Shown here piece by piece: positions 24,040-54,306 of a DNA stretch of 64,000 nucleotides (position 1 is its first letter; every line of letters begins with the position of its first letter). The stretch is from NCBI GenBank assembly GCA_963775855.1, contig CAVZKO010000008.1, positions 116,965 to 180,964 on the forward strand, read 5' to 3'. This stretch comes from an uncultured Chloroflexia bacterium. GTDB lineage: Bacteria; Chloroflexota; Limnocylindria; Limnocylindrales; CSP1-4. The notes under the pieces are model-generated. The model did not search any database. It was given only the letters and a program-made list of their open reading frames with translations, and was not told the DNA's origin. A program made the position numbers and the translations under genes.

Positions 24040-24108
24040 AGGCCACCTGGCACATTGGGCCGTCCGGCGCTTGGATGACGGCCGCCCGCTCCGCTACGCT
24101 GCGCCCGA

Positions 24109-25434: not shown

Positions 25435-26267
25435 GTGAGCGACCGAACGCCCAGCGGAGGCGCCTCCGGTCCCGTACCGTCCGTGTTCGAGATCGTCGGC
25501 GGCGAGGATCGCGACGGCGTTCTCGTTCGGGACATCCGGGTGGCGCCTGGTGGCGCGGGTGAGCCGATCGAGGCGTACCTCGTCGAGCCGTCCATCGTGG
25601 ACGCCCGAGTCGCGCGGCCGGCCCTGCTCTTCGCCCACTGGTTCGACACCGAGGCACCGAACGGCAATCGGACCGCAGTTCGTCGACGAGGCCGTCGACT
25701 GGGCACGGCGCCACAACGCGGCGGCCATCCTGCCCCAGCTGACGTTCCCGTGGCAGGGCGATCCGAGCGGCTCGACCGCGGATCGCGAGCGCGTGACGAC
25801 CGAGGTGAACCGGCTTCGGCGCTGCCTCGACGTCGTGACGGGCCGGCCGGCGATCGATCCGGCCCGCGTCGGCGTCGTCGGGCACGACTTCGGCGCGATG
25901 CACGCGACGCTCCTCGCCACGGCCGACCGCCGGCCGACCGCGTACGTGCTGATCGCGGCGGTGCCTCGCTGGGCCGACTGGTTCCTCGCGTTCTGGGCGA
26001 TCGAGGAGGACCGGATCGACTACCTGGCTGCGATGCGACCGCGTCGACCCGATCGAGCACATCGGGCGAGCGGCACCCGCGAAGGTGCTGCTCCAGTTCG
26101 CCCGGGCCGACTTCTTCATCGCCCCGATGACCGGCCTCGAGTTCAAGCGGGCCGCCGGCGAGGCCGCCGAGCTGAAGGCCTACGAGGCCGAGCACGACAT
26201 GGCCGTCCCGGACGCGCTCGCCGATCGAACCGCGTTTCTCGAGGAGGCGCTGGGGCCGACCGCCTAG
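25435..26267 (+). CDS. Alpha/beta hydrolase (dienelactone hydrolase-like), frameshifted
   Basis: ORF 25435..26130 N-terminus plus the 25550 frame (VGVVGHDFGAMHATLLATADRRPTAYVLIAAVP). C-terminus in ORF 26085..26267 (LLQFARADFFIAPMTGLEFKRAAGEAAELKAYEAEHDM). Confidence 0.55.
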
Positions 26268-27918
26268 CCGGCCCCCGCCTCGGCCCTCGCCTCGGCCCCG
26301 GCCGCAAGGCCGCGAAGCGTCGCCAGCAATCGGTCGATGTCGTCTTCCGTCGTCTGGGTGTTGACGATCCCGGCGCGCAGCCAGGTCGCGCCGCGGAGTC
26401 GGGTCGTCGACAGCCAGCCGTCGCCCGATGCCTCGAGGGCAGCCTGGAGGCGATCCTGGTGGGCGTCGAGGTCGCCTGGCGCCAGGCGACGTACCGCGGC
26501 TGCGCCGCCAGGCAGGTGCCGGAAGCAGACGACCGACAGCTCCGGCTCCGCCGGCAGCGCCTCGAGATCGTCGCTCTCCGCGCAGCGCCGGGCGAGGAGC
26601 GCCGCCTGGTCGATGTTCGCCTCGATGAGCCTTGCGAACCCGCTCGTCCCGAGGTGTTTCCAGCTCATCCACAGCTTCAGCGCCCGCCACCGGCGGGTGC
26701 CCTCGAAGCCGAGCTTGTAGAAGTTGAGCTGGCCCGGGACGTCGTGGTCGCCGTCGTTGCCGTGGTCGGCGTCGGCGTCCGGGTGGGCGCCCTCGTCGTT
26801 GCCGATCGGTGCCTCGCCGCCGCGGTAGTACTCGGGTCGGCGCCCGCCGAACGTCCGCTCGAGGAGCGCCCCGTCGCGGACCACCAGCCCGCCGATGTCG
26901 TAGGCCTGGTAGAACCACTTGTGCGGATCGACCGTCACCGAGTCGGCCAGCTCGAGGCCCGGGACTCGGCCCGCGTCGCGGGCGGAGAGCCGGGCGGCCG
27001 CCCCGTAGGCCGCGTCGACGTGGAACCAGAGCCCCTCGCGCCGCGCCACCGTCGGCGAGCTCCTCGATCAGGTCGACCGAGCCCGTGTTCGTCGACCCCG
27101 CCACCGCGGAGATCGCCAGCGGCGTGAGGCCGGCGTCGCGGTCGCGGCGGATCGCGTCGGCGGCTGGTTCAGGGTGGAGCCGGAAGCGGTCGTCGGTCGG
27201 TAGGACGACCAGCGTGTCGGCTGGAAAGCCGAGCTCGTCGAGCGCCCGGCCGATCGAGAAGTGGGTCTGATCGGACGTATAGACCCGGACGCCGTCCAGC
27301 TCGCCGCCCCGTGGCGGCCTCGCCGATCCGCGCAGCCCTGCGAGGTGGACGTCACGAGCCAGCGCCATCGCGAGGAAGTTGGCCATGACGCCGCCGGAGG
27401 TGAGCAGCCCGAAGCTGTCGGGGCCGTAGCCGACGAGGTCGCACAGCCAGCGGATGACCTCCTCCTCGACGAACGTCGCTGACGGACCGGCGTGCCAGAC
27501 GTCGACGCCCTGCTGGGTGACCTGGGCGAGCAGCTCGCCGACGACCGACAGCAGGAGCGGCGGCGGGGTGAAGTAGCTCAGCGAGCGCGGATGATGGGCG
27601 TTGAGCTGATGCGGGGCGAGACGGGTCCGGAACTCGTCGAGGATCGCCGCGGAGGTCGTCGGCTGGTCCGGGGCTGCGGCTGGCCCGCCCGTCGGTCCGA
27701 AGAACGACGCACGCAGCTCGGCGTAGCCGTTGCCTTCGCCCATCGCCCGGACGAACGCGTGGTCGTAGAGGTAGTCCAGGGCGGCCGCCCAGGCCTCGGC
27801 ACCGAGGCGCTCGAGCGCCGGGCGGGCCGCGGGTTCGCCGTAGCCGAGGAGCTCAGGCTCGGGGTGCCAGGCGAACCGATCGGCGGGGGACTGGTCGTCG
27901 GGGGGCATGCCCGGATGG
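26264..27918 (-). CDS. Pyridoxal-dependent decarboxylase, group II (DABA/aromatic-amino-acid decarboxylase family), frameshift near 27050-27070
   Basis: N-terminal part (MPPDDQSP...LSYFTPPPLLLSVVGELLAQVTQQGVDVWHAGPSATFVEEEVIRWLCDLVGYG...YTSDQTHFSIGRAL) sits inside ORF 25422..28427. C-terminal part in ORF 26264..27049 carries the PLP-lysine motif SVTVDPHKWFYQAYDIGGLVVRD. Confidence 0.75.
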
Positions 27919-27991
27919 TACGTGGGGCGGCCCGGCGGGCGCGTCGGCGAGATAGGGACGCGGCTGAGCGCCGTCCCGTAGAGTTGCACGC

Positions 27992-28376
27992 CGTGACCTC
28001 CCCGGGACCGATCCAGTACAAGGGCGAGGAGCTGCAGGCCGATCGCGGCCCGGGCCTCGGTTGCTTCCGCTTCCAGCTCGTCGTACTGGCGATCGCCATC
28101 GTCCTGACGCCGCTCAGCGTCGTCTGGAACTGGCCCGACTGGCTGAGCGCCGCCCTCCTCTTCTTCGTCATCCTTCTGCTGCTCGTCGCCGGCCAGACGA
28201 TCATCTTCCTGCTCCGCCTCGTGGCTGCCGACCGGCGGACGCGGCGACGACCGCTCGGCAGCGCCACGAAGACGGTCGGCGAGATCGAGGACGAAGCGCA
28301 CGATCAGGTGCCGGATGGGGCCCCCGCCGCGGTGTCCGATCCGGACCCGAGCGACGAAGGGCCCGTGCGACAATAG
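27992..28376 (+). CDS. Small membrane protein (2 TM helices, acidic C-terminal tail), hypothetical
   Basis: Inside ORF 27492..28376, from a GTG at about 27992: FRFQLVVLAIAIVLTPLSVVWNWPDWLSAALLFFVILLLLVAGQTIIFLL. The upstream part of that ORF is antisense to the decarboxylase. Confidence 0.4.
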
Positions 28377-33768: not shown

Positions 33769-35643
33769 CGTTGACCCGGTTCCAGCGACTGGCGATGCTC
33801 AGCGTCGCGATGACGCTCGCGCCTCGTGACGATCGGTGTCATCGTCCGCGCCACCGGCTCCGGCATGGGCTGTCCGGACTGGCCGCTCTGCCACGGCCAG
33901 CTGATCCCGCCGCTCGACGACTATCAGGCCTGGATCGAGTGGGTCCATCGCACGGTCGCGGCCGCGATCGGGTTCGTGGTGCTTGCCCTGGCCTTCGTCG
34001 CGTTCCGCGACCATCGCGACCGGCCCAGCCTCCTGTGGCCGTCGGTCGGGGCCGTGCTTCTCGTCGGGTTCCAGGCGTGGCTCGGGCGCGAGACGGTCCG
34101 GCTCAACAACTCCGGCGAATCGGTGACGGCGCACCTGGCGGCCGCGATGGCCCTGGTCGGGCTCCTCGTGTACATCCTCGTCCGGTCGTTCTATCCGGCG
34201 CGTATCGGCGGCCGGGGTGGCAGCCAGCGGTTCACGCTGCTCGCCGCGTTCGGTGCCCTGGCGGTCTTCGCCCTGCTCCTGTTCGGGTCGCAGGTGACGG
34301 CCACGTCGCAGTGGTTCGTCTTCCCCGACTGGCCGCTGATGAACGGCTCGCTGCTGCCGCCGCTCAGCGAGGGCACGTCGGCCCACGTCCTCCACCGCTG
34401 GGTGGCGATCGTCGTCGGCCTGATCGTGGCGGCCGTGACCCTTGCCGCGTGGCGGACACAGCGCTCGAACAGGGCGATCCTCCGGCTTACGCTGGTCGCG
34501 GCGATCCTCTTCCCGATCCAGGCGGTCATCGGCGGCCTCCAGATCCTGACCGACCTGGCGGGCTGGACCCAGACGCTCCACGTCGCCCTGGGCGCCCTGA
34601 TCTGGGCGGCGATGGCGGCTCTCGTCACGACGAGCTACTACGCGGCGAGGACCGCGCCCGCCCCGGCCGGCGACCGGACGGGCGCGACCGGCGGCCGGAT
34701 CGGCGGCGACGAGAGCAACGCTGAGCGGCACACCAGGACCGACACGGTTCGCGCCTACATCGCCCTGACCAAGCCCCGGATCATCGAGCTGCTGCTCGTC
34801 ACGACCGTCCCCGCGATGGTCCTCGCCACGCGCGAGGTGCCGGGGATCCAGGTCGGCCACTGGGCCTGGCTCACGCTCTGGACGCTCGTCGGCGGGACGC
34901 TCGCAGCGGGCAGCGCGAACGCGATCAACTGCTACCTCGATCGCGACATCGACGAATTGATGGTCCGCACCCGACGCCGGCCGCTGCCGGCCCACGAGGT
35001 CGACCCCGAGCGGGCGGTCGTGTTCGGCCTCGTCCTCGGGGTGATCTCGTTCGTCGTCCTGGCGTGGTTCGTCAACCTCCTCTCGGCCTTCCTCGCCCTG
35101 CTGGCGATCGCCTTCTACGTCGTCGTCTACACGATCGTCATGAAGCGGACGACGCCCCAGAACATCGTGATCGGCGGGGCGGCGGGGGCCCTGCCGCCGG
35201 TCATCGGCTGGGCGGCGGTCACCGGCAACGTCGGCATCCCGGCGCTCCTCCTCTTCGCCCTCGTCTTCTACTGGACGCCGCCCCACTTCTGGGCGCTTTC
35301 GCTGCGGATCCGGAAGGACTACGCGGCGGCCGGCGTGCCGATGCTGCCCGTCGTCCGGGGCATCCCCGAGACGACCCGCCAGATCGGCCTCTACGCGATC
35401 CTCATGGTCGCGATCTCGCTCGTGCTGTGGGCCGTCGCCCGGATGGGCTGGATCTACCTCGTCGCGGCGGTCGTGCTTGGCGCGATCTTCCTTCGCCAGG
35501 CCTACCGCCTGTGGCGCGAGGGCGCCTCCGAGGAGGCGTCGACCGCCGGCGCGATCCGCCTCTACAAGTACTCGATCTCGTACCTGACGCTGCTGTTCGC
35601 GGCAATCGCGGTCGACGCGATCGTGGCCGTCCCGCTCGGCTGA
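33769..35643 (+). CDS. ctaAB: Fused heme A synthase (CtaA/COX15-like) and protoheme IX farnesyltransferase (CtaB/COX10, heme O synthase); one frameshift near 33820
   Basis: A single 605-aa ORF, 33826..35643. The N-terminal half has RATGSGMGCPDWPLCHGQLIPP and 8 TM helices with conserved His residues. The linker is YYAARTAPAPAGDRTGATGG. The C-terminal half has the UbiA-fold motifs YIALTKPRIIELLLVT...NCYLDRDID...MKRTTPQNIVIGGAAGALPPVIGWAAVTG...YWTPPHFWAL. The extreme N-terminus RFQRLAMLSVAMTLA is in the adjacent frame (ORF 33771..). Confidence 0.8.
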
Positions 35644-35710: not shown

Positions 35711-37453
35711 ATGGACGCTCCGATGCCACCCGCGGCGTGGCACGATGGGCCGATGGAGATCCACTTCCTCGGCGGTGCCACGACGGTCACCGGCTCCCAG
35801 TTCCTGCTCGTCACCGAGCGTGCGCGAATCCTCGTCGACTGCGGGATGTTCCAGGGCAGCCCGAACGAGGCCGTTCGGAATCGGATCCCGCTCGGGTTCG
35901 ACCCGGCAACGCTCGACGCCATCCTCCTGACCCACGCCCATCTCGACCACTGCGGGCTGATCCCCCACGTCGTCGATGAAGGATTTCGCGGGCCCGATCA
36001 TCGCGACCCACGGCACGTGCGAGCTGGCCGAGCTCGTCCTCCTCGACTCGGGCCACCTCCAGGAGGAGTTCGCCAAGCGCGAGGCGCGCTGGGAGAAGAA
36101 GCATCCCGACGAGGCGGTCACGGACGACCAGGAAGAGCGCGCGGCGTACGACGCTGCGCTCCGGCTTGCCGAGAACCCGGCCGCGGCGACGCCCATCGCC
36201 CCGGACGCCGCGACGATCGCATCGGAGGCGGCCTCTGAAGAGGTGGCGGTCGCGACCGAGACCGGCGGCGAAGGTGCCTGGGCGATTGCGTCTCACGGGG
36301 CCGGGCATGCCGTCCGCCGCGCCGGCCGGCGCCGCGATCGACGACCTCGAGGACGACCTTCGCCGCCAGCCGCCGGTCCTCGAGGTTGACCTCGACGAGC
36401 CGCTCTACACGCAGGACGAGGCCCGGCGGGCCCTGGAGCAGTTCAAGGCGATCGACTACGACGAGGAGATCGAGGTCGCGCCGGGCATCACTGCGACGTT
36501 TGTCGACGCCGGCCACATTCTCGGCTCGGCGATCATCCGGGTCCGCGTCGCCGAACGCGCCGGCGAGCCGGAACGGACGATCGTCTTCTCGGGCGACCTC
36601 GGCCGGCCGGACACGCCGATCATCCGCGACCCGACGATCCTGACCGACGCCGACTACATCCTCATCGAATCGACCTACGGCGGCCGCGAGCACGAGCCGC
36701 AGGACGAGGCCATCCGGGTGCTCGCCGAGACGGTTCGGCTCGTGGCCGAAGCCAACGGCGTACTGCTCGTCCCGTCGTTCGCGATCGGGCGGACCCAGGA
36801 GGTCGTCTGGCAGCTCGATCGGCTGATCGACGACGGGGCGATCCCGCTCCTGCCGCTCTATCTCGACTCGCCGATGGCCTCGAAGGCCTCCGACATCTAC
36901 CGCACGCCATGCCGACTACTTCGACGAGGAGACCGCCAAGCTCCTTCGGGCGGGCGGCTCGCCACTCGACTACCCGGATCAGCACGTGACCCGCCGCGTC
37001 GAGGAGTCGCAGGCGATCGCCACGGCGCCCCGGCCGTACATGATCGTCGCCTCGAACGGGATGCTGACCGGCGGCCGCGTCGTCGGTCACCTCCGCAACC
37101 TGATCGGCGATCCGGACGCGACGATCCTGTTCGTCGGCTACCAGGGCGAGGGGACGCTCGGGGCCCACCTCCAGGCCGGCGCCACCGAGGTCAAGATCGA
37201 CGGCCAGCTCCGCGAGGTCCGCTGCCAGATCCGCTCGATCAGCGGCTTCTCGGCCCACGCCGACGAGTCGGAGCTGCTCGACTGGCTGTCGAACTTCGCC
37301 CGCGGCAAGCAGCCCGGCGACAAGGGCTACCCTCGCCGCGTCTTCCTCGTCCACGGCGACCCCGAGGCCCAGATCGCGATCGAGCCGAAGGTCAAGGCGC
37401 TGGGCTTCGACACGAAGATTCCGCACTGGCGCGAGCGGGTCGTCATCGACTGA
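35711..37453 (+). CDS. MBL-fold beta-CASP ribonuclease (RNA-metabolising metallo-beta-lactamase) with an internal acidic low-complexity insertion, split over 4 frames
   Basis: ORF 35711..36238: IHFLGGATTVTGSQFLLVT...ILVDCGMFQG...ILLTHAHLDHCGLIPH. The 36166 frame: DYDEEIEVAPGITATFVDAGHILGSAIIRV...IVFSGDLGRPDTPIIRDP...ADYILIESTYGGREHEP...LLVPSFAIGRTQEV. ORF 36986..37453: C-terminal RNA-specificity domain ISGFSAHADESELLDWL...RVFLVHGDPEAQ. Confidence 0.7.
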
Positions 37454-37635
37454 CCGAGGTCCGCGGCGTGGCCCGCGTGCTTGGCGTGTCCCGTGGCGCG
37501 GAACCACGGGCACCATCAGGCGGAACGCCGGGGGCATTGGAATCGGGCCGCCACACAATCGGGCGCATGGTTGAGCTTGCTCAGCGACCGGTGCAGGAGG
37601 GTACGCTGGCGGCAACGGCCGCTCCGGCCGACTCG

Positions 37636-39199
37636 ATGGGAGCCTTGATGCGGCCGTCGTTGAACATCCTGGGCGACGAGCTGACCGGCCGGATCGTCGA
37701 CGAGGCGAAACGCGTCCTGGCCGAGGTCGGGATGGAGATCCGCGGCCCGGAGATGCGGCGCCGCCTGATCGAGCACGGTCTGCCCACGAACCCGACCGGA
37801 GAACGCGTCCTGTTCCCGCGGGACGTCGTCGAGGCCGCGATCGCCTCCGCGCCCGAGTTCGTTCATGCTCTACGACCGCGACGGCGAGCCGCACGCTGAC
37901 CTCGGCGGCGACCGGGTCCACTTCGTCCCGGGCTCGTCGGGCCTCAAGGTCCTCGACCACCGGACCGGCGAGACGCGCCTCGCGAACTCGACCGACTTCA
38001 CCGAGTACGTCCGGCTCGCCGACGGCCTCGAGCACATCGCCTACCTCGCGACGGCGTTCTCGACGAACCTCGACATCGAGGCCCAGGTCTCCGATGCGTG
38101 GCGCCTCTACATGACCCTGACCAACTCGAAGAAGCCCGTCGTGTCGGGCGCGTTCACCGAACACGGCGTGCCGCGGATGGTCGAGATGATGCAGCTGTTC
38201 CGGGCGGATCGAGCCGACCTCATCGCCCGCCCGATGAGCATCTTCACGATCACCGCGACCGGCAACTTCCGGTACAGCGAGGACTCGTGCCAGAACCTCA
38301 TCGACTGCGTCGAGGCCGGCATCCCGGTCGAGATCGTGCCGGTCACGCTGATGGGGCTCATCGCTCCGGTCACGATCGTCGGGGCGACGGTCTTCCACAC
38401 CGTCGACGTGCTCGCCGGGATCACGATGGCCCAGGTCATCAAGCCCGGCGCGCCGGTCCTCTTCGGCGGCGCCCCGGCGACGTTCCACATGAAGATCGCG
38501 AGCGCGCCGATGGCCGCGATCGAGGCGCTCCGGCTCGACGTCGCGTACATCGCGGTGGCCAAGGCGCTCGGCCTGCCGTGCCAGTCGTACATGGCCCTCT
38601 CCGACGGCAAGATCCTCGACGCCCAGGCCGGCGCCGAGACGTTCGGCAGCGCACTGCTGGCGGCCCTCGCCGGGGTCAACTCCGTGTCCGGCCCCGGGAT
38701 GCTCGACTTCCTCCTGGTCTTCAGCCTGCCGAAGCTCGTGTTCGACGACGAGATGTGCGCCCAGGCGCTCCAGTTCGTACGGGAGGTCCAGCCGGCCGAC
38801 GACCTGCCCGTGTCGGCGCTGATCGACCAACTCATGGCCGACCAGCACCTGATCATGGCCGAGCACACGATGGCCCACTGGCCGTCGGAGCTCTACCTGC
38901 CGAGCACGATCGTCGACCGCGACAACCGCGAGGCGTGGCTCCGCCTTGGCGGCAAGGACACGTACCAGCGGGCATGCGACGAGGTCGAGCGGCGGCTCGC
39001 GGCCTACCGCCAGCCGGAGACCGATCCGGCCATCGACGCCGAGCTGCGCTCGATCATCCAGGCCGGCCTGACCGACCAGACGATGCTTCCCGAGATCCCG
39101 CCCGCGCCCGAACCGGCCGCCGTCGTCCCGTCGGGTGCCGCCGCCCGCCGCCAGAACCCGCGCCGCCAGCGCATCAGCCAGGAGGGCCCACCGGCATGA
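37636..39199 (+). CDS. Trimethylamine-methyltransferase (MttB) superfamily protein, non-pyrrolysine type (quaternary amine:corrinoid or THF methyltransferase-like); one frameshift near 37860
   Basis: N-terminus [31 protein letters not shown]...[20 protein letters not shown] in the 36166 frame. ORF 37865..39199 (444 aa) carries the rest of the TIM-barrel ([14 protein letters not shown]...[22 protein letters not shown]...). No in-frame amber codon is needed. Confidence 0.75.
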
Positions 39200-40370
39200 C
39201 CAGCCCGACCGCGACCCCGGCCACGTCCGACTCGTCGACGCTCTATTTCGGGCCCTGGTACCGCCGATCGCCGTTCTTCGAGAAGACGCTCGCTGCCGGC
39301 TGCAGCGCCTACGACATCTACAACCACATGTACCTGCCGGGCTACTACGGCGACCCGGTCGAGGAGTACTGGGCCCTGCTCAACGGCGTGACGATCTGGG
39401 ACGTGGCGGTCGAGCGGATCGTCGAGATCACGGGCCCGGATGCGTCGGCGTTCACGAACACGTTGACCTGTCGCGACCTGACCAAGTGCGCCGTCGGCCA
39501 GGGCAAGTACGTGCTCATCACCGCCGAGGACGGCGGCATCGTCAACGACCCGGTCCTGCTGCGCGTCGAGGCCGACCGCTGGTGGCTGGCCCTCGCCGAC
39601 TCCGATGCCGGGCTGTGGGCGCGCGGCGTCGCGATCAACTCCGGCGATGGACGTCAAGGTCCGCGAGCCGGAGGTCTATCCGGTCCAGGTCCAGGGCCCG
39701 AAGTCGAAGGACGTCATGGCGACGCTGTTCGGCGATGCCGTTCATGACATCAAGTACTACTGGACGCTCACGACCGAGCTGGATGGCATCCCGGTCGTCA
39801 TCAGCCGGACCGGCTGGACCGGCGAGGTCGGCTACGAGATCTACCTGCGCGACCCGTCGCGCGGCGGCGACCTCTGGGACAGGATCATGGAGGCCGGCCG
39901 GCCGCACGATATTCGGCCGATCGCGCCATGCGAGGCACGCCGCATCGAGGCCGGCATCTTCAACTACGGCTCCGACATGACGATCGACAACAACCCGTTC
40001 GAGATCATGGGGTTGGAGCGGCTCGTCGAGCCGCAGGAGGCCGACTACATCGGCAAGGACGCGCTCGAGGCGATCCGGGCGCGCGGCGTCCACCGCAAGC
40101 TCGTCGGGATCGAGTTCGAGGGCGACGCGCTGCCGTTCGAGATCTCGCGGAAGCTCGCCGCGCGTCACGACGGCGAGACCGTCGGCACCGTGACCGACCT
40201 CATCTGGTCGCCGCGGCTCGAGCGGAACATCGGCTACGTCTGGGTGCCGTTCGGGCTGTCCGCGCCGGGCACGGCCCTCGAGATCGAGGCGCCGGACGGC
40301 GGCCTGCTGGCCGGCGACGACGGCAGCGATCCCATTCATCGACCCCCGCAAGGACACCCCGAAGTCATGA
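39196..40370 (+). CDS. Aminomethyltransferase (GcvT/DmdA-like, folate-binding) family protein, frameshift near 39640
   Basis: The ATG overlaps the mttB stop (ATGA). N-terminus in the 38098 frame ([67 protein letters not shown]). Remainder in the 39605 frame ([18 protein letters not shown]...[15 protein letters not shown]). The C-terminus ...[18 protein letters not shown] is recovered in a third frame. Confidence 0.65.
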
Positions 40371-41560
40371 CGTCGCCGCTCACCGCCGACGAGATCGCGG
40401 CCGTCCGGAAGCCGTACCGTGCGGCGTCGCTCCTACCCGGCCGGGCGTACCACGACCCCGCGATCCACGACTTCGAACGACGTGAGTGGTTTCGCCACGA
40501 CTGGATGGTCGTCGGGCGGGAGGAGGAGGCGCCGACGGCCGGGACGTACTTCACCGCGCAGATCGACGACGAGCCGCTGCTGATCGCCCGCGGCCGCGAC
40601 GGCGAGCTGCGAGCGTTCTACAACGTCTGCCGCCACCGCGGGACCGCGGTCGTCGAAGAGGCATGCGGCAAGGCCGTCCGATTCCAGTGTCCGTATCACG
40701 CCTGGATCTACGACCTCGAGGGCAAGCTCGTCCGCGCCAAGCACACCGACGACCTCGACGACTTCAGCTTCGACGAGTTCGGCCTCGTGTCGGTTCGGAT
40801 GGAGACCTGGCAGGGGTTCGTGTTCGTCAACCTATCTCCGGAGGCGCCGCCACTCGTCGAGTGGCTCGGCGACCTGCCGCCGCATCTGGCCCGGTTCGAC
40901 TTCTCGGGGCTGCGAAGCGCCCACGAGGTGACCTACGAGGTCGACGCCAACTGGAAGTTCATCGCCGAGAACTACAGCGAGTGCTATCACTGCCCCGGCA
41001 TCCACCCGCAGCTCAACAAGCTGACGCCGTACGACCTCGGTGGCGACTTCGCCCCGACCGGGCCCTGGCAGGGCGGCTGGATGGAGCTCGTCGAGAGCGC
41101 CGAGACGATGGCGATCGACGGCGGCCATCGCAACGGGCGACCGGCGATGGCCGGCATGACGCCCCTCGACGAGCGGCGGATCTACTACTACCTCGTCTGG
41201 CCGACGACGTTCCTGTCGATCCACCCCGACTACCTGCTCATCCACCGCCTCGAACCGGCCGGTGCGGACCACACCCGGATCACCTGCCAGTGGCTGTTCG
41301 AGCCCTCGACGATCGCGACGCCCGGCTTCGACCCGTCCGACGCGATCGCGTTCTGGGACCTGACAAACCGCCAGGACTGGCACGTCTGCGAGCTGCAGCA
41401 TCGCGGGACGCGGTCGCAGAGCTGGACGGCTGGCCGCTACTCGAACCAGGAGCCGAGCGTCCACGCGTTCGACCTGATGGCGGTCGACCGATATGCGAAC
41501 GACGGCATCAACTCGGCAGCGGACGGTCCGGCTCCGGTACGACGTCCCGACGCCGAAGGA
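40367..41560 (+). CDS. Rieske [2Fe-2S] non-heme iron oxygenase alpha subunit (GbcA/CntA/Stc2-like N-demethylating oxygenase); 3' end uncertain
   Basis: The ATG overlaps the GcvT-like stop (ATGA). Rieske motif CRHRG-x17-CPYHAW. Catalytic domain with NYSECYHCPGIHPQLN and downstream conserved Asp/His. The ORF reads on to 41782, implying an undetected frameshift or stop loss at the 3' end. Confidence 0.7.
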
Positions 41561-41675
41561 CGGGGAGGCCGATGTCTTCGAGGGCGACGTCGCGGCGGTT
41601 CGCCTGCCCCGCGCCGGGGACTCACCGACGTCCCGGTCCGATGCCCGGACGAGAGCGGCGACCCGCGGCTGACCC

Positions 41676-42498
41676 TCAGCCCGGCGGCGCCTCGTCCTCG
41701 TCGACGACCGCCCGCCCCTCGCCACGGAACGCCCCGAGCCGCCACGCGGCGAGGATCGCAAGGGCAGTTGCCGCGACGATGATCGTCGAGATCGCGTTGA
41801 TCTCCGGCGTCACGCCGAACTTGATCTTGCCGTAGATGTAGAGCGGCAGGGTCGAGCTGCCGACGCCCGAGTTGAACGTCGTCACGACGTAGTCGTCGAA
41901 GCTGAGCGAGAACGCGAGCAGGGCGCCCGCGATCACCGCCGGGAGGATGATCGGCAACGTCACGTAGCGGAATGCGCCCCAGGCCGACGCGCCCAGATCG
42001 CGCGCGGCCTCCTCCAGCTGCGGGTTCATGCTCGCCGCCCGCGCGCGGACGATGATCGCGACGTAGGAAATGCAGAACGTGATGTGCGCGACCCACAGCT
42101 GGAGCAACGAGCCATGGGCGTCGAAGAGCTGGAGGAAGAACAGCAGGAGCGCGAGGCCCATCACGATCTCGGGGGTGACCATCGGCACGAGCAGCAGCGT
42201 CTCGGTCGCGCCGCGGCCGCGGAAGCGCAGCCGTGCCAGGCCCAGCCCCAGGAGCGACCCCAGGATCGTGGAGACGAGCACCGCGACGACGGCGACCTCC
42301 AGCGTCACGCTGAGCGCATCGATCAGCTCGTCGTTCGAGAACAGCTGCGGGTACCACTTGGTGCGTGAAGCCCTGCCACACCAGGCCCCGCCGGGCGCTG
42401 TTGAACGAGAAGATGATCAGGACGACGATCGGCGCGAAGAGGAAGGCGTAGACGAGCAGCGCGTAGACCGACAGCCAGCGGTTCCGCTCGGGGGTCAT
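41676..42498 (-). CDS. ABC transporter permease (PotC/PotI-like), one frameshift
   Basis: N-terminus in ORF 41437..42498 (MTPERNRWLSVYALLVYAFLFAPIVVLIIFSFN). Body in ORF 41676..42308 (PMVTPEIVMGLALLLFF...DLGASAWGAFRYVTLPIILPAVIAGALLAFSLSFDDYVVTTF). Confidence 0.75.
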
Positions 42499-42513
42499 TG
42501 AAGGTCAGCGCTC

Positions 42514-43376
42514 TCAGTCGCCACCGATGACCTCCCGCCGCAGCGTCCGCAGCGCGAGCAGCGTCCCGCCAAGCGTGACGATCATGAGCACGAACCCGAG
42601 AGCCGCGCCGTACGGCCAGTCTCGCCCGGCGAGGAACAGCTCCTGGATGTTCTTGGCGATCGTCGTCGTCTGCGGCCCGCCCAGGAGATCGGGCGTGACG
42701 AAGTCGCCGAGCGCCGGAATGAACGTCAGCAGCGCCGCGGCGATGATGCCCGGCATCGTCAATGGCAGGGTCACGTGCAGGAACGCCTGCCGACCCGAGG
42801 CGTACAGGTCCCGCCCGGCCGCCACGAGGTTGGTGTCGAGCCGGTCGATCGAGACGAACAGCGGCAGGATGGCAAAGGGCAGGAAGCCGTACGTCATGCC
42901 GAGGATCACCGAGATGTCGGTGTTCATGAGGATGATCGGCTCGTGGGTGAGCCCGACCGCCTGGAGGATCGAGTTCACGACGCCGTTGTCCCGCAGCAGG
43001 ATCATCCACGAGTAGGTCCGGATCAGATAGCTGGTCCAGAACGGGAGCATGACGAGGATGATCAGCAGGACCTTGTGGCGACCACCGTACCGGCTGATCC
43101 AGTAGGCGATCGGATAGCCGATCGCGAGCGACAGGACCGTCGTGATCGCGGCGTACCGGATCGAGTTCAGGAACGTCGGCAGGAAGACCGGGTCGAACGC
43201 CTTGAAGTAGTTGTCCAGGCTCGGGCTCGCGAGAGACACCCGATCGAGCGCGTCACGTGATCCGAGACTGACGACAAAGATGAACGCCAGCGGGACGACG
43301 AAGAACAGGACGAGCCAGCCGACGCCGGGCAGCAGCAGCGCCGCGCCGCGCAGCCGCGAGAGACGGCCAGGAGTTG
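42514..43376 (-). CDS. ABC transporter permease (PotB/PotH-like); 5' end approximate
   Basis: ORF 42514..43239 (IGYPIAYWISRYGGRHKVLLIILVMLPFWTSYLIRTYSWMILL...DLYASGRQAFLHVTLPLTMPGII). A TM1 extension is recoverable upstream in another frame. Confidence 0.75.
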
Positions 43377-43382
43377 CCCCGG

Positions 43383-44598
43383 TCAGCCGCGCAGCTCCTG
43401 CCAGCGCGACAGGTACTCGTCACGCACGTCCTGGTCGAGCGCCAGCAACTCCTCGAGCTTGTCGACGATCTCCTGGTCGGGGTTGATCGTCGGGTCTTCC
43501 AGGATCGCCGGGTCGATGAACTCCTTGGCCGCGGCGTTCGGCCCCATGTAGTAGATGAGGTTCGTGTTGGCCGCGCTCTGTTCGGCGTCGAGCAGGTGGT
43601 TGATGAACAGTTGTGCGGCGATCGGGTGGGGCGAGCCGGTGAACGTCGCGACGGTGTCGGACCCCTTCACCCCTCCCTCGTCGGGGATGTAGTACGCGAA
43701 GTCCGGGATCGTCTCCTGGATCGCGAACCGGTCGGCGCCCCAGATGTGGCCGATCCAGATGTCGCCCGACGTCATCGTCCCGATCGTGTCGGTCGAGTAC
43801 GTCCTCACCAGCGGCTTCTGCTGCTTGAGGAGCGCCAGCGCCTCGTCGAGCTCACCCGCGTCATCAGTGTTCGCGGAGTGCCCGAGCTGGATCAGCGTCA
43901 GCCCGAAGACCTCCTGCCAGTCGTCGAGCATCGAGATGTGCTGCGACCAGCGCGTATCCCAGAGTGCCTTCGAGCTTGTGGGAGCCTCGCCGCCGAGCCG
44001 CGCCGGGTCGTAACCGACGCCCGTCGTCCACCACATGTAGGGGACGGAGTACGTGTTGCCGGGGTCGTAGCCTGGATTCGCCCACTCCGTGCCCAGGTTC
44101 TTGATGTTCGTCAAGAGCGATTTGTCGAGCTTGGCGATCGTGCCCTTGGCGATCATGTTCGGCACGTCGACCGAGATCGGAAAGCTGATGTCGTAATCCC
44201 CGCCGTCGTCGCCGAGTTTCGTGTACATCTCGTCGGTCGTCGAGAAGAAGCTCTGGGTCACCTTGACCTTGTACTTGGCCTCGAACGACTTGATGACCTC
44301 GTCGGCAAGGTAGTCGGTCCAGTTGAGGATGTTGAGCTCCGCCTCCGGCGAAGGGACCGGCGTCGGGGACGGCGGGCGAGGATGCTCCGGTCGACGGCGA
44401 AGCGACGATCGCGGTCGCGGCCGGGCTTTGTGTTCCGCCGGCAGACGTGCACGCCGCGATGATCGGGGCGAGTGCGGCTGCCGATCCGACCCGGGCGATC
44501 CGCTCCAGCAGCTCCCGCCGGCTCAGCTGACGCTCGACCATGTACCGGACGAGGGCCTTCTCCAGGTCGATCGTCGACCCGTCGTAGCGTTCGCTCAT
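43383..44598 (-). CDS. ABC transporter substrate-binding lipoprotein (PotD/PotF polyamine-binding family) with a Tat-like signal; one frameshift near 44260-44340
   Basis: N-terminus MSERYDGS...RRELLERIARVGSAAALAPIIAAC in ORF 43864..44658. Mature domain in ORF 43383..44261 (VPYMWWTTGVGYDP...FINHLLDAEQSAANTNLIYYMGPNAAAKEFID). Confidence 0.75.
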
Positions 44599-45714
44599 GC
44601 CAGAACCTCCTCCTGATCCCGATCCCCGGCGAGGACGAGCGCCTCGGCCGGCTCCCACGTGACGTCGACAGCGCTGCCGACGGCGAAACGGTTCACGGTC
44701 TTCGGTGCGAGCGCGGTGATCGCAAGCCCGCCGCTCGAGCGGACGTGGTACTGGACGCTGCCGCCGAGGTACGCGACCTGTTCCACCGTGGCAGCGATGG
44801 GCTTGGGAGAGTACGAGGTCCCGTTCGAGGGGCGGAGTTGGACTGATTCCGGGCGGATGCTCAGCTCGATCGAACGCCCGACGACGAGGTCCGCCCGACC
44901 GACCACACAGGTCTCAGCCGACTCCAGCCTGACGATCGCGTGATCGGCATCGACCGACTCGACCGTGCCGGTGAGCAGATTCGTCGTTCCGATGAAGTCG
45001 GCCACAAAGCGGGTCGTCGGTCGCTCGTAGAGCTCTTCCGGCGTCCCGAGCTGCTCGACCCGGCCGCGGTTCATGACCGCGATGCGGTCGCTCATCGTGA
45101 GCGCCTCCTCCTGGTCGTGGGTCACGTACACGAACGTGATCCCGACCTCCGCCTGGACCCGCTTCAGCTCGACCTGGAGCTGCTTTCGGAGCTTGAGGTC
45201 GAGTGCCCCCAGCGGCTCGTCCAGGAGCAGCACGTTGGGACGGTTGACGAGCGCCCGGGCGAGGGCGACGCGCTGCTGCTGACCGCCGGACAGCTGTGTC
45301 GGACGGCGCTTCTCGTAGCCCGCGAGGTGGACGAGGTCGAGCGCCTCCCCGACGCGTCGGCGAATGTCGCTCGGCTCGACCTTCCTTCGCCGCAGCCCGA
45401 ACGCGATGTTGTCGCCGACGTCGAGATGGGGGAAGAGGGCGTAGTTCTGGAAGACCATGTTGACCGGGCGCTTGTCCGGCGGATCGGCCGTGACATCCCG
45501 CCCGCGGAGCTCGATCCGCCCGAGGGTCGGCTGCTCGAAACCGCCGATCATGCGGAGCGTGGTCGTCTTGCCGCAGCCCGACGGCCCGAGCATCGAAAAG
45601 AACTCGCCCGACCGGATGTCGAGGGTCACGCTGATCGACGGCACGGACCTCGCGGAAGTGCTTCGACAGGTGGATCAGGCGGATCTCGGGCGCTCTCTCC
45701 GCACGCTCGATCAT
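44595..45714 (-). CDS. potA: ABC transporter ATP-binding protein (PotA-like, with C-terminal TOBE/MOP domain)
   Basis: ORF 44595..45644: Walker A GPSGCGKTT, signature LSGGQQQRVALARAL, Walker B LLLDEPLGALD. The N-terminal 23 aa are in the adjacent frame (ORF 44914..45714, MIERAERAPEIRLIHLSKHF). Confidence 0.85.
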
Positions 45715-45815: not shown

Positions 45816-47483
45816 TCAGGACGCCGCTGGGATCCTGGGCTGCGCTCCGAAGCGGTTGTCGGCGCGATCGGAGGTCATTCGCTGGAAGTCGCCCTGGTCC
45901 GAGACTTCCAACGCTGCGAGGTCGATCCCCTCGGCATTCATCTCTATCGATGGCCTGGCGAGCAGGTAGCCCTGTGCCGCAGAGATTCCCAGACTTCGGA
46001 CGACGGCAAGCTGGGCAGCGGTCTCGACGCCTTCCGCGACGATCGATACCCGCCATTGTTTGGCGAGCTCCTGGAGCGCCCGCAGCACCCCGTGCGACGG
46101 ATCGTGCATCGTCCCGCCCTGGACGAGCGAGAGGTCGATCTTGACGATGTCGAAGCTGATCTCGTTCAGGAGCCGGAGACCGGCGTTACCGGCACCGACA
46201 TCGTCCGCGGCAAGGCGCATTCCCGCCCGCCGGCAGGCCTCCACGTTCTTCCGCAGCTGCTGAAGGTCCTCAACCTGTTCTCGTTCGGTCAGCTCCAGGA
46301 CCACCCGCTCGAGCGCGATCCCGTTGCGGTGGAAAATCGCCTTCAGCTCGCCGGGGTGGAACAGGTTGGACTCCAGGGTTCGGGGTGAAAGGTTGACGCT
46401 GACATACGTCTCGGCGTTCGGCAGCTCAATCCCGGCGGCGACGACCTCGAGGCAGGCGAGGTCGAGTTCGACCGTGCGGCCGGCCGCCTCGGCGGCCGCG
46501 AACAGCGAGCTGGCATCCGGGAACGGGGCACCGTCGGTCGGGCGGACGAGGCCCTCGAAGCCGATCGGTTCGCCCGTCGTCATCGAGAAGATCGGCTGGT
46601 AGACCGGTCGCAGCGCCCGCGTGGCGAGGACCGTGCCGATGCCTGCGGACAGCTCGGAGACCGAGCGATCATCGGATGCCGCGCCGTGGCGCCCGGGATC
46701 GAACCCGACGACGGCCGTCCGTCCGTGGCGTTTGCACCAGTAGAGGGCCGCGTCGGCGTTGCGATAGAGGTAGTGGCTCTCAGCGCTCGGCGCCGGGAAC
46801 GCCGATACCCCGATCGACAACGAGAACGACTCGATGGAGTCGCTCGGATCGCCGCCGTTGAGGGCCGAGGCGAGGATGCGCCGCGCGACGGCCAGTCCGG
46901 TGTTGACGTCGGAGTTCGGCAACAGGATCGCGAACTCGTCGCCACCGACGCGGAAGGCGCGGTCGCTCCGCCGCAGGATCGCCGCGGTAACCCGGCCCAA
47001 TGCCTCGAGCAGTCGGTCCCCACCGACATGGCCCTGGGTGTCGTTGACACGCTTGAGGTCGTCGACGTCGACGAGCAGCAACGACAGGGGCGTCCTCATT
47101 CGTTTGGCGTAGTCGAGCTGGCGGGCCAGCTCGTCCTGGAACGCGCGGTGGTTACCAAGGCCGGTCAGGCCGTCGATCAGCGCTTCGTGGCTCGCCCGGC
47201 CGTAGAGCTCGCTGAGCTCCCCGCGTTCGTGGTCGAGGGCCTCGGCCTCGCGCAGGATCCCGCGGGCGAGCAAGGCCATCAGCAGCGGCAGGGACACCGC
47301 CGCGACGATCAGGACGACGATCGCGGTCGTCGTTCGCGAGGAGTCGACGGGCGCGAATCCCACAACCGTCGCGACGCTCATGAGTATGCCGAACGGTCCG
47401 AGCAACGCCCAGATCAGGCGTTTTCGAATGCGATCGACCCGTCCGCTGGACCATGCAGGCCCGCCGGCGGAGGGCGTGGTCAT
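45816..47483 (-). CDS. Membrane-anchored GGDEF-EAL protein (diguanylate cyclase / c-di-GMP phosphodiesterase), apparently intact
   Basis: Inside ORF 45816..47855, from the ATG MTTPSAGG: 2 TM helices, GGDEF domain (RTPLSLLLVDVDDLKRVNDTQGHVGGDRLL...RVGGDEFAILL), EAL domain (PVYQPIFSMTTGEPIGFEGLVRP...EGVETAAQLAVVRSLGISAAQGYL). Confidence 0.8.
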   Translation of the reverse strand: MTTPSAGGPAWSSGRVDRIRKRLIWALLGPFGILMSVATVVGFAPVDSSRTTTAIVVLIVAAVSLPLLMALLARGILREAEALDHERGELSELYGRASHEALIDGLTGLGNHRAFQDELARQLDYAKRMRTPLSLLLVDVDDLKRVNDTQGHVGGDRLLEALGRVTAAILRRSDRAFRVGGDEFAILLPNSDVNTGLAVARRILASALNGGDPSDSIESFSLSIGVSAFPAPSAESHYLYRNADAALYWCKRHGRTAVVGFDPGRHGAASDDRSVSELSAGIGTVLATRALRPVYQPIFSMTTGEPIGFEGLVRPTDGAPFPDASSLFAAAEAAGRTVELDLACLEVVAAGIELPNAETYVSVNLSPRTLESNLFHPGELKAIFHRNGIALERVVLELTEREQVEDLQQLRKNVEACRRAGMRLAADDVGAGNAGLRLLNEISFDIVKIDLSLVQGGTMHDPSHGVLRALQELAKQWRVSIVAEGVETAAQLAVVRSLGISAAQGYLLARPSIEMNAEGIDLAALEVSDQGDFQRMTSDRADNRFGAQPRIPAAS

Positions 47484-47655
47484 CGTCGTCCCTCGTTTCT
47501 GCCCCGGTAGGAAGGTTGTAGGCCCCAACGGATGGGTTCGATCTGGATCGAAGGTACTAGTCAGGGCGCGGCATTGTGACCAAGGACGCTCGCCACGTCC
47601 CGGCATACCTTCATGGCCGGCCCTCTCCGGTGTGGGCCAGGAGAGCCAACCGCAC

Positions 47656-48936
47656 ATGACCCATCCCAACCCGACTCGAACCGAAACAGCGCGAACGGCC
47701 ATCCTCGCGGTCGCGATCGCCATGGCCCTCGTCCTTCTGCCCCTCACCAGCGAACACGTTGCGGCGGCAAGCTGCAACGGGGCCTCGCACCCGGCTCCGG
47801 TCCTCAGCGCCGGGAAGGCCTCGCCGGGCTCGGGCACGCCGTCGACGACCATCACGTTCTCGGTCCGCTACAAGGACAGTGCCGGCTGCCGTCCCTCGAA
47901 GGTCGATGTCGTCATCCCGGGTCGGGGGCGGTATGCGCTGACGGGCTCCGGAGCGGGCTTCGCTGGGGGTGTGACCTACTCGAAGTCGATGAAGCTGCCG
48001 GCCGGATCCTGGGGCTACCGCTTCGAGGCGACCAGCGGCAACGGGGCGGGTACCAAGTCGGTCGTCCTGAAGAAGGTCGCCCCCGGGAAGGTGGTGATCC
48101 TCGCCCCAACCCCGAAGCCGACCCCCAAGCCGACCCCCAAGCCAACCCCGAAGCCGACTCCCAGACCGACTCCGCGGCCCACTGCGAAACCAACCCCTAA
48201 GCCCACGCCGCCGCCAGTCCCCGTTGCAACTCAGGCTCCAGTCGCGACCCCGACCCCCGATGCGACGGCCGGCGCCAGTGGGGCGTCAACCGGTCCGACG
48301 CCGACAGCGTCCGCCCCGGGCCACGTCGCGGTCGGTGGCCCCGCCGGACCTGGCGGTGGCGGCGGATCGTCGGGTCCGCGCGGCGGGATCGGCGTGCGTC
48401 CGACGCCGCTTCCGGAGGCACCGACGTTCGTGTCGACACTGCGGTTCGGGATCGATCCGGGCATCGGCCTTCCCGTGTTCGCATGGTCGTTGACGACCGC
48501 GCTCGGAGTGATGCTCTTCGCTCTCGTTCTTCGCCGGCCGGCCCGCCGCGGGCAGCCGGTCGGAGCAGGCCCGATGGCGTCCACGGCTGTCTCGCCGGTC
48601 GCCACGCTCGAGGCCAACCCGGACGAGGCAAATCTGCCCCGCTGGTTGCGCCCCACGCTTCGTCAGCAGCGCCAGTGGAGCGACCGCCAGGCGCCGGCCG
48701 CGGCTCGCGAGCCGGAACGGTTCGAGTCGAGGCCGCGACCGGGGGTGGACCGACGAACGATCGGCTACCGGCTTGTCCGGTTGTCCGACGGACCGGACGA
48801 TCTCAGATCCTCGGAGATCGGTCGGCTCGATCGCGGCGACGAGGTCGAGATCATCGGTGACGTCGGCGGGTTCCTCCAGGTAAGGACGCCGAGCGGGCTG
48901 GAGGGCTGGGTGCCCCGGATCGCCATCGTCCGGTAA
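47656..48936 (+). CDS. Secreted protein with a (T/A)PKP tandem-repeat linker, a C-proximal TM helix and a C-terminal SH3b-like domain
   Basis: Inside ORF 47380..48936, from the ATG MTHPNP with an RBS GGAGAG 10 nt upstream. Signal peptide ILAVAIAMALVLLPL. Repeat PTPKPTPKPTPKPTPKPTPRPTPRPTAKPTPKPTPPP. TM helix WSLTTALGVMLFALVL. C-terminus GDEVEIIGDVGGFLQVRTPSGLEGWVPRIAIV. Confidence 0.6.
   Translation: MTHPNPTRTETARTAILAVAIAMALVLLPLTSEHVAAASCNGASHPAPVLSAGKASPGSGTPSTTITFSVRYKDSAGCRPSKVDVVIPGRGRYALTGSGAGFAGGVTYSKSMKLPAGSWGYRFEATSGNGAGTKSVVLKKVAPGKVVILAPTPKPTPKPTPKPTPKPTPRPTPRPTAKPTPKPTPPPVPVATQAPVATPTPDATAGASGASTGPTPTASAPGHVAVGGPAGPGGGGGSSGPRGGIGVRPTPLPEAPTFVSTLRFGIDPGIGLPVFAWSLTTALGVMLFALVLRRPARRGQPVGAGPMASTAVSPVATLEANPDEANLPRWLRPTLRQQRQWSDRQAPAAAREPERFESRPRPGVDRRTIGYRLVRLSDGPDDLRSSEIGRLDRGDEVEIIGDVGGFLQVRTPSGLEGWVPRIAIVR
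48106..48215 (+). repeat. In-frame 12-nt periodic tandem repeat (ccSaagccgacY) encoding (PKPT)n
   Basis: Read directly at 48106-48215: ccgaagccgacccccaagccgacccccaagccaaccccgaagccgactcccagaccgactccgcggcccactgcgaaaccaacccctaagcccacgccg. Confidence 0.7.
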
Positions 48937-53743: not shown

Positions 53744-54225
53744 CTAGCCCGGCAGGGCGACCTCGATCCGGCCGTCGACGACCCGAACCGGGTAGTAGCG
53801 GAACCGGCGGACCCGGGTCAGGCGGCGGGCCTCCGCCTTGAGGCCGGGCGGGTCGGTCTTCGGCGGCAGGCCGGCCGGCGACCACGTCGGGTGGTAGACG
53901 CCGTCCGGATCGAGCCCGCCCGTCGTCGGCATCCGGACCGGATCGCCCGAGCAGAGGTCGAATTGGCCCTCGTGCAGCGGGCAGGCGACGACGCATCCGT
54001 CGAGCTGCCCGATCGAGAGCGGGCGCCGCCATGTGCGGGCACCGATCGTCGACGGCGACGATGCCATTCGGGGTGTGGGCGATGAGGATGTCCAGGTCGC
54101 CCTCGGGAGACGCGTCGCATCGCCCCGGGCGGCAGCTCGTCGGCGTCGAGCACCGCCTCGAAGGGCGCATCGGCGGTGCCGGGCGCGGCGAGTCCCGCGG
54201 GGATGGGGGCGGGTACGGGGGTCAC
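53744..54225 (-). CDS. Rieske [2Fe-2S] ferredoxin-like small protein, frameshifted; last gene of the marR-MFS operon
   Basis: Start MTPVPAPI (ORF 53818..54225). CPHMAAP (ORF 53703..54170) and CPLHEGQFDLCSGDPV...YYPVRVVDGRIEVALPG (tail of ORF 53744..55465) give the CxH...CxxH Rieske pattern. Confidence 0.5.
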
Positions 54226-54306
54226 GCCGGCGATCGTAGCGCAGGAACGAACAACGGCCCCGGCTCGAGGTCGAGCCGGGGCCGTTGCCGAGAGGAGGAG
54301 CGAACG

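Follow-up and report, generated by a model that had tools for sequence, protein, structure and literature searches.

Every characterized enzyme of the MttB methyltransferase family methylates Co(I) (PMC12478193; PMC13080624). In the aerobe Ruegeria pomeroyi, genes for the MtgB homologues, MtgC, and MtgD are scattered over the genome; a split methionine synthase also draws on MtgC and MtgD, and a single MtgC is presumed to serve as many as seven PF06253 genes per genome (PMC12478193). The ligands of MtgB are Y97 and F356, which form cation-π contacts, and R312 and H348, which bind the carboxylate; R312 is common to all MttB-family proteins whose function is known, and all of these take acidic quaternary amines (PMC13080624). 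Group V Rieske oxygenases carry, as in CntA, a bridging Glu205 and a Cys206-x-x-Cys209 pair, while position 203 separates clade Va, where an aromatic residue makes a cation-π contact with the quaternary nitrogen and C-N bonds are cleaved, from clade Vb, where an Asn goes together with binding of the substrate carboxylate to iron and N-demethylation (PMC7948474, PMC10952381). In the folate-dependent DmdA, a Trp contacts dimethylsulfoniopropionate (DMSP) and a Glu and a Tyr contact folate, the Trp being common to non-DmdA relatives, too (PMC7487153). Here, we analyze a locus in which members of these three families are encoded by consecutive, overlapping genes facing a Pot-type ATP-binding cassette (ABC) importer. 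It lies in a 64-kb stretch of DNA with a G+C content of ~70% (contig CAVZKO010000008.1, referred to as the window) from the genome of a member of the Limnocylindria (Chloroflexota).

Each family and the general logic of such a locus, namely the import of a methylated amine, several demethylases, and one-carbon capture on folate, are known already. Apparently new are the way in which the genes are combined and tightly coupled, the distribution of this set within an uncultured class, and its off-pattern active sites: an MttB protein without the carboxylate-binding Arg, a Rieske oxygenase of mixed Va/Vb character, and a non-marine DmdA-like enzyme. Literature searches on MttB together with Rieske or aminomethyltransferase genes, on Limnocylindria, and on corrinoid-independent MttB enzymes found no description of the locus in the searchable papers. 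Limnocylindria abound in soil and freshwater as uncultured bacteria, and many environmental genomes, those of aerobes included, carry annotated MttB-family genes, mostly without an assigned substrate. The locus provides a conserved, testable three-enzyme set with residue patterns beyond every characterized specificity. Identification of its substrate would extend the routes that return methylated amines to soil one-carbon and nitrogen pools and would also reveal whether the cobalamin demand here includes amine demethylation.

Operon architecture and the variable cassette

A preliminary description of the window had placed three demethylation-type families in one operon interrupted by frameshifts. 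Once these were corrected, profile and structure searches upheld all three family assignments, with Pfam matches to MTTB, GCV_T/GCV_T_C, and Rieske/Ring_hydroxyl_A (Table 1). Both ATGA overlaps that it had reported between successive genes are exact when the sequence is read directly. Its upstream limit of the locus, 37454, is only the first base past the stop codon of the preceding gene; the MttB gene more likely starts at the ATG at 37567, and its start may lie up to ~30 nucleotides (nt) further upstream.

Relatives were collected by scanning one genome per species with the Rieske alignment, which gave 559 relatives, and the best 80 loci were analyzed. Nearly all of these belong to Limnocylindria, and two short contigs are labeled Methylomirabilota and Verrucomicrobiia. 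The window proteins were mapped onto the related loci (designated by L numbers) by tblastn, and the open reading frames (ORFs) of 84 loci were clustered to define recurrent neighbors. The close homologues of all three proteins come without exception from Candidatus Limnocylindria/Limnocylindrales in soil and freshwater metagenomes. As the Rieske gene served to select the loci, its constancy among them is by construction, and the cassette counts given below are biased toward it.

Gene junctions were read in 24 loci, many of them from short-read assemblies. The MttB-to-GcvT junction is a 4-nt overlap (ATGA or GTGA) in 15 of 15 other loci, short-read assemblies included. Between GcvT and Rieske, 6 of the loci checked show the 4-nt overlap, whereas the remainder have a gap of 13-106 nt with a ribosome-binding site. 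Since the junction overlaps recur across loci, the overlap-coupled operon put forward initially is real and conserved. The MttB-GcvT-Rieske arrangement is not due to chance, and its tight overlaps suggest joint expression. At the distal end, the stop codons of the Rieske and potC genes converge with 3 nt between them (window 41670-41678), and no terminator-like hairpin was found within 37300-41900. Transcripts of both operons would run into each other.

A fusion of the GcvT-like and Rieske genes, as simulated by a 766-codon open frame in the window and an 824-amino acid (aa) gene called in L001, was rejected, as clean assemblies encode separate genes of 390 aa and ~430 aa. The L001 gene (L001:11659-14133), which matches GCV_T, Rieske, and Ring_hydroxyl_A, is an artefact of a 1-nt insertion at L001:12392, which leads to 146 codons of read-through in the wrong frame that contain no stop.

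The chromosomal region is colinear in relatives and runs from ctaAB and a beta-CASP gene over a variable cassette, the Rieske gene, and convergent potCBDA to xth, ACT, ArsC, and LOG genes. The cassette was scored in 67 species-level loci with enough upstream sequence: it holds both MttB and GcvT in 19, GcvT only in 16, MttB only in 6, and neither of them in 26. MttB and GcvT have been gained or lost independently at this locus. In some sister loci (L005:5692-10004, L036-L038, L045, L007, L050), MttB and GcvT are replaced or accompanied by a further Rieske alpha paralogue in tandem, which shares the ENYSECYHC motif, and/or by an amine-oxidase-like gene of the flavin adenine dinucleotide (FAD) type encoding 538 aa. 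As these tandem Rieske and FAD genes swap with or join MttB and GcvT, we regard the site as a variable demethylase cassette. In L031, an MttB-Rieske locus, the sequence ATGACCAGTCAGCC past the MttB stop (L031:7957-7995) looks like the start of a GcvT-like gene, which suggests that GcvT was lost there by deletion.

Family assignments and active-site residues

The MttB protein matches PF06253 with 272 bits over profile positions 29-492 of 500 and stays below the cutoff for true trimethylamine methyltransferases (TIGR02369, 279 vs 525). Its closest solved structure is MtgB (9yce/2qne, 181 bits), and homologues 97% identical to it measure 543-553 aa. As proposed before, it is a non-pyrrolysine member, with the sense codon CUC (Leu344) where the pyrrolysine codon would be; this residue is also aligned with a Leu of MtgB. 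A match to PYLIS_3, the mttB pyrrolysine insertion element, at window 38597-38696 (+) scores 32.9 bits, below the gathering score of 38, and comes from coding-sequence homology. The protein thus belongs, like MtgB, to the non-pyrrolysine members of the PF06253 TIM-barrel family. The MtgB betaine ligands, however, are replaced throughout its clade (Y97S, R312Q, H348S, and F356L), a pattern invariant in a MAFFT alignment of 16 sequences, the window protein and 15 others. Because all four glycine betaine ligands differ, the protein is not an MtgB, and these replacements suggest that its substrate probably lacks a carboxylate or phosphate.

Limnocylindria contain several MttB copies per genome, and, as in aerobic Ruegeria, the corrinoid gene is not found next to the methyltransferase. 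Copies 84-86% identical to the window protein lie at other genomic sites (L002:10001-21533, L091:1-17373, L092:9001-13324, L093:9001-12839), where they neighbor a GNAT or D-Ser-dehydratase-like gene, a second divergent MttB, an ammonium transporter, and a cupin-HTH regulator. N-methylglutamate-pathway-like genes (GATase, GXGXG, Glu_synthase, SoxD/SoxA-like) likewise stand beside MttB copies elsewhere. In contrast to MtgBCD, the window MttB overlaps a downstream GcvT-family gene instead of a pterin-binding methyltransferase gene, its locus has an importer of the PotD and not the betaine type, and neither MtgC nor MtgD, its partners, turned up in a search that covered the window and 1.42 Mb of related loci.

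Of the three proteins, the GcvT-like one shows the highest conservation, with 81-93% identity across the best 120 matches. It contains GCV_T (146 bits) and GCV_T_C (47 bits) domains and is best matched by the DmdA model NF009133, whose cutoff of 410 is not reached by its score of 332; the models of glycine-cleavage GcvT are below cutoff as well (173 vs 300, 137 vs 236, and 107 vs 459), and neither gcvH nor gcvP was seen among its neighbors in the locus. Among solved structures, Pelagibacter DmdA (3tfh, 229 bits) is closest, followed by the C-terminal folate domain of trimethylamine N-oxide (TMAO) demethylase (175 bits). The DmdA motif GW..GGYE.Y, which reads SGWSKQGGYEVY in 3tfh, is kept with its Trp and its folate-contacting Glu and Tyr, but is not diagnostic, as non-DmdA relatives also have the Trp. 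DmdA-like in domains, residues, and structural match, the protein departs from DmdA by scoring under the curated DmdA and GcvT cutoffs and by its soil and freshwater rather than marine lineage. Its genetic pairing with an oxidative demethylase recalls dimethylglycine dehydrogenase (DMGDH), Tdm, and Dmm; unlike TMAO demethylase, DMGDH, and DmmD, it is a stand-alone protein without a flavin or DUF1989 fusion.

The Rieske protein, with matches to Rieske (68 bits) and Ring_hydroxyl_A (160 bits), is best described by the GbcA model NF058607, although its score of 218 is far below the cutoff of 670. Its homologues are stand-alone proteins of 425-445 aa. It shows the group V features in full: the CxH...CxxH cluster, the 2-His-1-carboxylate site completed by Asp337 (aligned with the Stc2 Asp), the bridging Glu205 in place of Asp, and Cys206-x-x-Cys209. 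The catalytic motif is found in 88 of 88 Rieske copies of the related loci. The closest solved structures are 3n0q, the stachydrine demethylase Stc2 (3vca/4qup), and the carnitine oxygenase CntA, with aromatic dioxygenases all behind. For the preliminary description, an aromatic-hydroxylating affiliation would have weakened the demethylation reading; the bridging Glu, the Cys pair, and the nearest structures place the protein in the quaternary-amine clade, so that the quaternary-amine reading stands.

Within group V, the aligned motifs read ENYSECYHC in the window protein, DNYMECYHC in CntA, and ENNRECYHC in Stc2. The protein therefore lacks the Asn of clade Vb (GbcA/BmoA, Stc2) and has Tyr in its place, as in clade Va (CntA, choline monooxygenase, OxyBAC). 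Overall similarity favors Stc2 and 3n0q, the only structures with which the catalytic domain aligns. The protein is a mosaic of clade Va and Vb signatures, and its placement in either clade is provisional. It differs from GbcA/CntA-type systems by a conserved C-terminal tail and shares no more than 35% identity with any plasmid-borne homologue from cultured bacteria. The earlier remark that no Rieske reductase is adjacent extends to the relatives, as no GbcB/CntB-type gene recurs, or lies next to the oxygenase gene, in the 80 loci. A small frameshifted Rieske-type ferredoxin-like ORF at 53747-54258 (-), ~12 kb from the oxygenase gene and beside MFS and MarR genes, takes the same relative place in L005:18843-19343 and L006:19467-19952. 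This ORF might conceivably supply the oxygenase with electrons.

The four importer components are PotABCD-like. The ATPase passes the TIGR01187 cutoff, while PotB, PotC, and PotD are under their equivalog cutoffs and the gene order is A-D-B-C. The PotD-like gene overlaps the potA stop with its start and encodes a signal peptide and lipobox; its product matches E. coli PotD (1pot) with 153 bits. E. coli PotD reportedly has 13 ligand-contact residues, as worked out by Sugiyama and Kashiwagi in 1996. At the 12 of these positions that were compared, W34, T35, Y37, D168, E171, W229, D257, and Y293 are kept, E36 is Asp, and S83I, Y85V, and W255G are changed. These residues fit a polyamine-like cation as the putative ligand. 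Between sister loci, the binding protein is 41-91% identical, and the membrane and ATPase parts are more alike.

Table 1. Coordinates of genes and motifs at the MttB-GcvT-Rieske locus and its convergent importer (window positions).
Feature	Position	Strand	Remarks
Non-pyrrolysine MttB-superfamily methyltransferase gene, 543 aa	37567..39199	+	PF06253; extra base near 37851 removed
CUC (Leu344) codon at the pyrrolysine UAG position of true MttB	38597..38599	+	Rfam PYLIS_3 alignment
ATGA, GcvT-like start over MttB stop	39196..39199	+	Read directly; GGAGGG run 10 nt upstream
DmdA/GcvT-like folate-binding aminomethyltransferase-family gene, 390 aa	39196..40370	+	Extra bases near 39646 and 40305 removed
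ATGA, Rieske start over GcvT-like stop	40367..40370	+	Read directly; stop comes into frame only with the extra base near 40305 removed
Group V (quaternary-amine type) Rieske non-heme-iron oxygenase alpha subunit gene, 434 aa	40367..41672	+	Extra base near 41516 removed
Rieske [2Fe-2S] ligand motif CRH...CPYH	40628..40699	+	C88, H90, C108, and H111 invariant in the Rieske alignment
Catalytic motif ENYSECYHCPGIH	40967..41005	+	Tyr at CntA-Y203, bridging Glu205, Cys206/Cys209, iron ligands His208/His213
potC-like ABC permease gene	41676..42498	-	NCBIfam PotC 210 vs cutoff 326; frameshift near 42365-42400; N-terminus matched to the L005 homologue
potB-like ABC permease gene	42514..43419	-	NCBIfam PotB 237 vs cutoff 348; start codon approximate
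PotD-like solute-binding lipoprotein gene	43383..44598	-	Pfam SBP_bac_8; PotD model 158 vs 582; frameshift near 44350-44420
PotA-like ABC ATPase gene	44595..45714	-	TIGR01187 382 vs cutoff 355.6, passed; frameshift near 45635-45660

Proposed route and the corrinoid question

Our favored reading, which we put forward tentatively, is a stepwise demethylation of an imported cationic methylated or quaternary amine without a carboxylate in an aerobic member of the Limnocylindria, with folate as the one-carbon sink. The PotABCD-like importer would take up a polyamine-like cation, and the MttB-family enzyme would move a methyl group from its quaternary nitrogen to a corrinoid protein encoded elsewhere, like Ruegeria MtgBCD. 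The group V Rieske monooxygenase would hydroxylate a carbon beside the nitrogen, in the same intermediate or the one that follows, with electrons supplied by an unlinked reductase or ferredoxin. The DmdA/GcvT-like protein would bind tetrahydrofolate (THF) and either trap formaldehyde or an iminium from the oxygenase or demethylate an intermediate directly. Of this picture, the gene families with their order and overlaps, their conservation across species, and the residue patterns are observed, whereas the class of substrate, the succession of steps, the distant partners (corrinoid protein and reductase), and the part played by the importer are inferred. The proposed lack of a carboxylate on the substrate is suggested by three independent hints, MttB R312Q, Rieske Tyr203, and the acidic ligands of the PotD-like protein, together with the methylamine-pathway neighbors of the MttB copies. 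Of the stepwise route suggested earlier, the outline is plausible, while its betaine substrates fare poorly: none of the four MtgB betaine ligands is kept, and the residues make glycine betaine, carnitine, and proline betaine unlikely.

Several points weigh against this stepwise route. The GcvT-like protein is nearest to DmdA, which transfers a methyl group directly from a sulfonium compound, and not to the formaldehyde-capturing domains, and the oxygenase may not release formaldehyde, as Tyr203 marks the C-N-cleaving clade Va and not the demethylating Vb. The residue arguments each rest on alignment to relatives of ~30-35% identity. Neither the corrinoid protein nor a methyl-corrinoid:folate methyltransferase, an activase, or a Rieske reductase was seen in the window and the related loci, with whole genomes outside the search. 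As to the importer, a convergent Pot-type system is present as first described, but its link to substrate delivery is weak: given that colinearity extends over the entire region throughout the class, the adjacency may be mere inherited synteny, and by eye, without a formal test, the type of binding protein shows no obvious correlation with the type of cassette.

That no cobalamin-binding gene is adjacent, as noted at the outset, is borne out by a motif scan and gene-cluster survey of the window and the related loci. The cobalamin-binding motif DxHxxG...SxL...GG is absent from all 1.42 Mb of these sequences, four other MttB contexts included. The recurrent neighbors in the 84 clustered loci are housekeeping or unrelated genes (ctaAB, beta-CASP, xth, ACT-domain, LOG, MFS) and comprise no corrinoid protein, pterin methyltransferase, or reductase. 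An Rfam scan of the window detected no cobalamin, THF, or glycine riboswitch, the PYLIS_3 match described above being its sole hit. The missing neighbor is nevertheless uninformative, as the partners of the cobalamin-dependent Ruegeria MtgB are unlinked, too. Nor can the sequence decide on corrinoid use, since the docking contacts in the MttB-MttC structure paper are mainly backbone hydrogen bonds and a partner-subunit loop.

The preliminary description had raised a corrinoid-independent transfer from MttB to folate. In such a relay, the MttB clade would move the methyl group of a non-acidic quaternary amine to THF without a corrinoid, directly or in a complex with the coupled GcvT/DmdA-like protein, which would replace the corrinoid protein and the MtgA/MtgD-type methyltransferase. 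The 4-nt MttB-to-GcvT overlap in all 15 checked loci with both genes, the lack of a cobalamin-binding motif and, in the window, of a cobalamin riboswitch, and the resemblance of the GcvT-like protein to DmdA, a direct maker of 5-methyl-THF, speak for it. Yet the independent gain and loss of the two genes, with MttB lacking GcvT in 6 loci and the reverse in 16, argues against an obligate relay, and the MttB copies of 84-86% identity at other loci have no GcvT-only gene beside them. Further, folate N5 is a much weaker nucleophile than Co(I) toward a quaternary ammonium methyl group, which counts against the relay. The literature searched describes no corrinoid-independent MttB member; the characterized enzymes all methylate Co(I), and in the aerobic case the partner genes are unlinked (PMC12478193; PMC13080624). 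We therefore consider a corrinoid-free transfer very improbable, leaving it a small probability because the overlap is invariant whenever both genes are present; if true, the MttB superfamily would thereby gain its first member that works without cobalamin.

The main rival of the stepwise route is a two-part oxidative N-demethylase, in which the Rieske and GcvT-like proteins would cooperate, an N-methyl group being hydroxylated and formaldehyde being trapped as methylene-THF, and MttB would be an independently acting passenger that by chance came to lie at the variable site in some lineages. This pair would follow the same logic as DMGDH, TMAO demethylase, and DmmDABC, and the folate domain of TMAO demethylase is the second-best solved match of the GcvT-like protein. 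GcvT and Rieske genes occur without MttB in 16 loci, often with ATGA overlap, the cassette upstream of the Rieske gene varies in content and can comprise MttB, a gene for an FAD amine oxidase, or another Rieske gene, and in one genome MttB lies ~30 kb from the GcvT-Rieske-pot locus (L002 and L027 on one contig). However, the pair is not obligate, as the Rieske gene stands without either partner in 26 of 67 loci; selection of the loci via Rieske biases the counts toward this gene, and the invariant MttB-GcvT overlap speaks against random insertion. We regard the two-part enzyme as rather unlikely. Improbable, in our view, is that the three enzymes act on different compounds and are grouped by common regulation of one-carbon harvesting instead of by one pathway, for example with the DmdA-like protein acting on DMSP or S-methylmethionine, the Rieske protein cleaving C-N bonds as CntA does, and MttB serving another quaternary amine. 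DmdA is indeed the closest characterized relative of the GcvT-like protein and its Trp, Glu, and Tyr are kept (PMC7487153), Tyr203 is the C-N cleavage signature of clade Va, and the genes assort independently. On the other hand, the DmdA model score is below cutoff (332 vs 410), the tight overlaps suggest joint expression, and three residue-level hints converge on one substrate class.

In a plasmid collection, the nearest annotated relatives are 28-36% identical and serve as analogies only. On rhizobial plasmids, distant MttB genes adjoin genes of ~806-aa FAD-oxidoreductases and a betaine importer, with no corrinoid gene beside them; the size of these oxidoreductases, rather than their annotation, suggests that they are DMGDH-like with a GcvT domain. 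In Priestia, a distant Rieske homologue is accompanied by a sarcosine-oxidase-like solA gene and by an FAD-dependent oxidoreductase of 803 aa, which only its size marks as DMGDH-like.

Sequence quality and flanking genes

In a third-position GC frame plot of the window, the coding frame jumps within what are clearly single genes. Frameshifts were placed by alignment with L001, a colinear relative of 91% nucleotide identity found via the MttB protein. Compared to L001, the window has four extra single bases, near 37851 in MttB, near 39646 and 40305 in GcvT, and near 41516 in the Rieske gene. Their deletion yields clean proteins with the lengths given in Table 1, which agree with hundreds of database homologues (MttB 505-553, GcvT-like 388-391, Rieske 425-445 aa). 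The potA, potD, and potC genes have one frameshift apiece.

Across the studied region, 1-nt insertions or deletions (indels) amount to about one per kb (window 24079-25422, 26267-28064, and 35711-37453 as well as potA, potD, and potC). They also split unrelated genes, namely those of a DAO-family oxidoreductase, a pyridoxal decarboxylase, and a beta-CASP hydrolase. As third-position GC exceeds 0.9 in each fragment and unrelated genes are hit as well, assembly errors of the unpolished long-read type are the simplest reading and most likely the cause, rather than gene decay. A pseudogene or decaying locus was judged unlikely on the same grounds and because related long-read assemblies have such breaks, too.

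Upstream of the operon, the ORF at 33814-35643 (+) fuses heme A synthase-like (COX15/CtaA) and heme O synthase (CtaB/UbiA) domains. The CtaA-CtaB fusion is also found in L004, while L001 has a separate 361-aa CtaA call. Upstream of the importer lie a GGDEF-EAL gene (45816-47867) and an SH3-domain gene (48370-48933). Both are missing from the otherwise colinear L069, an indel of ~3.2 kb (window 45816-48933), and the GGDEF-EAL gene is present in L001.

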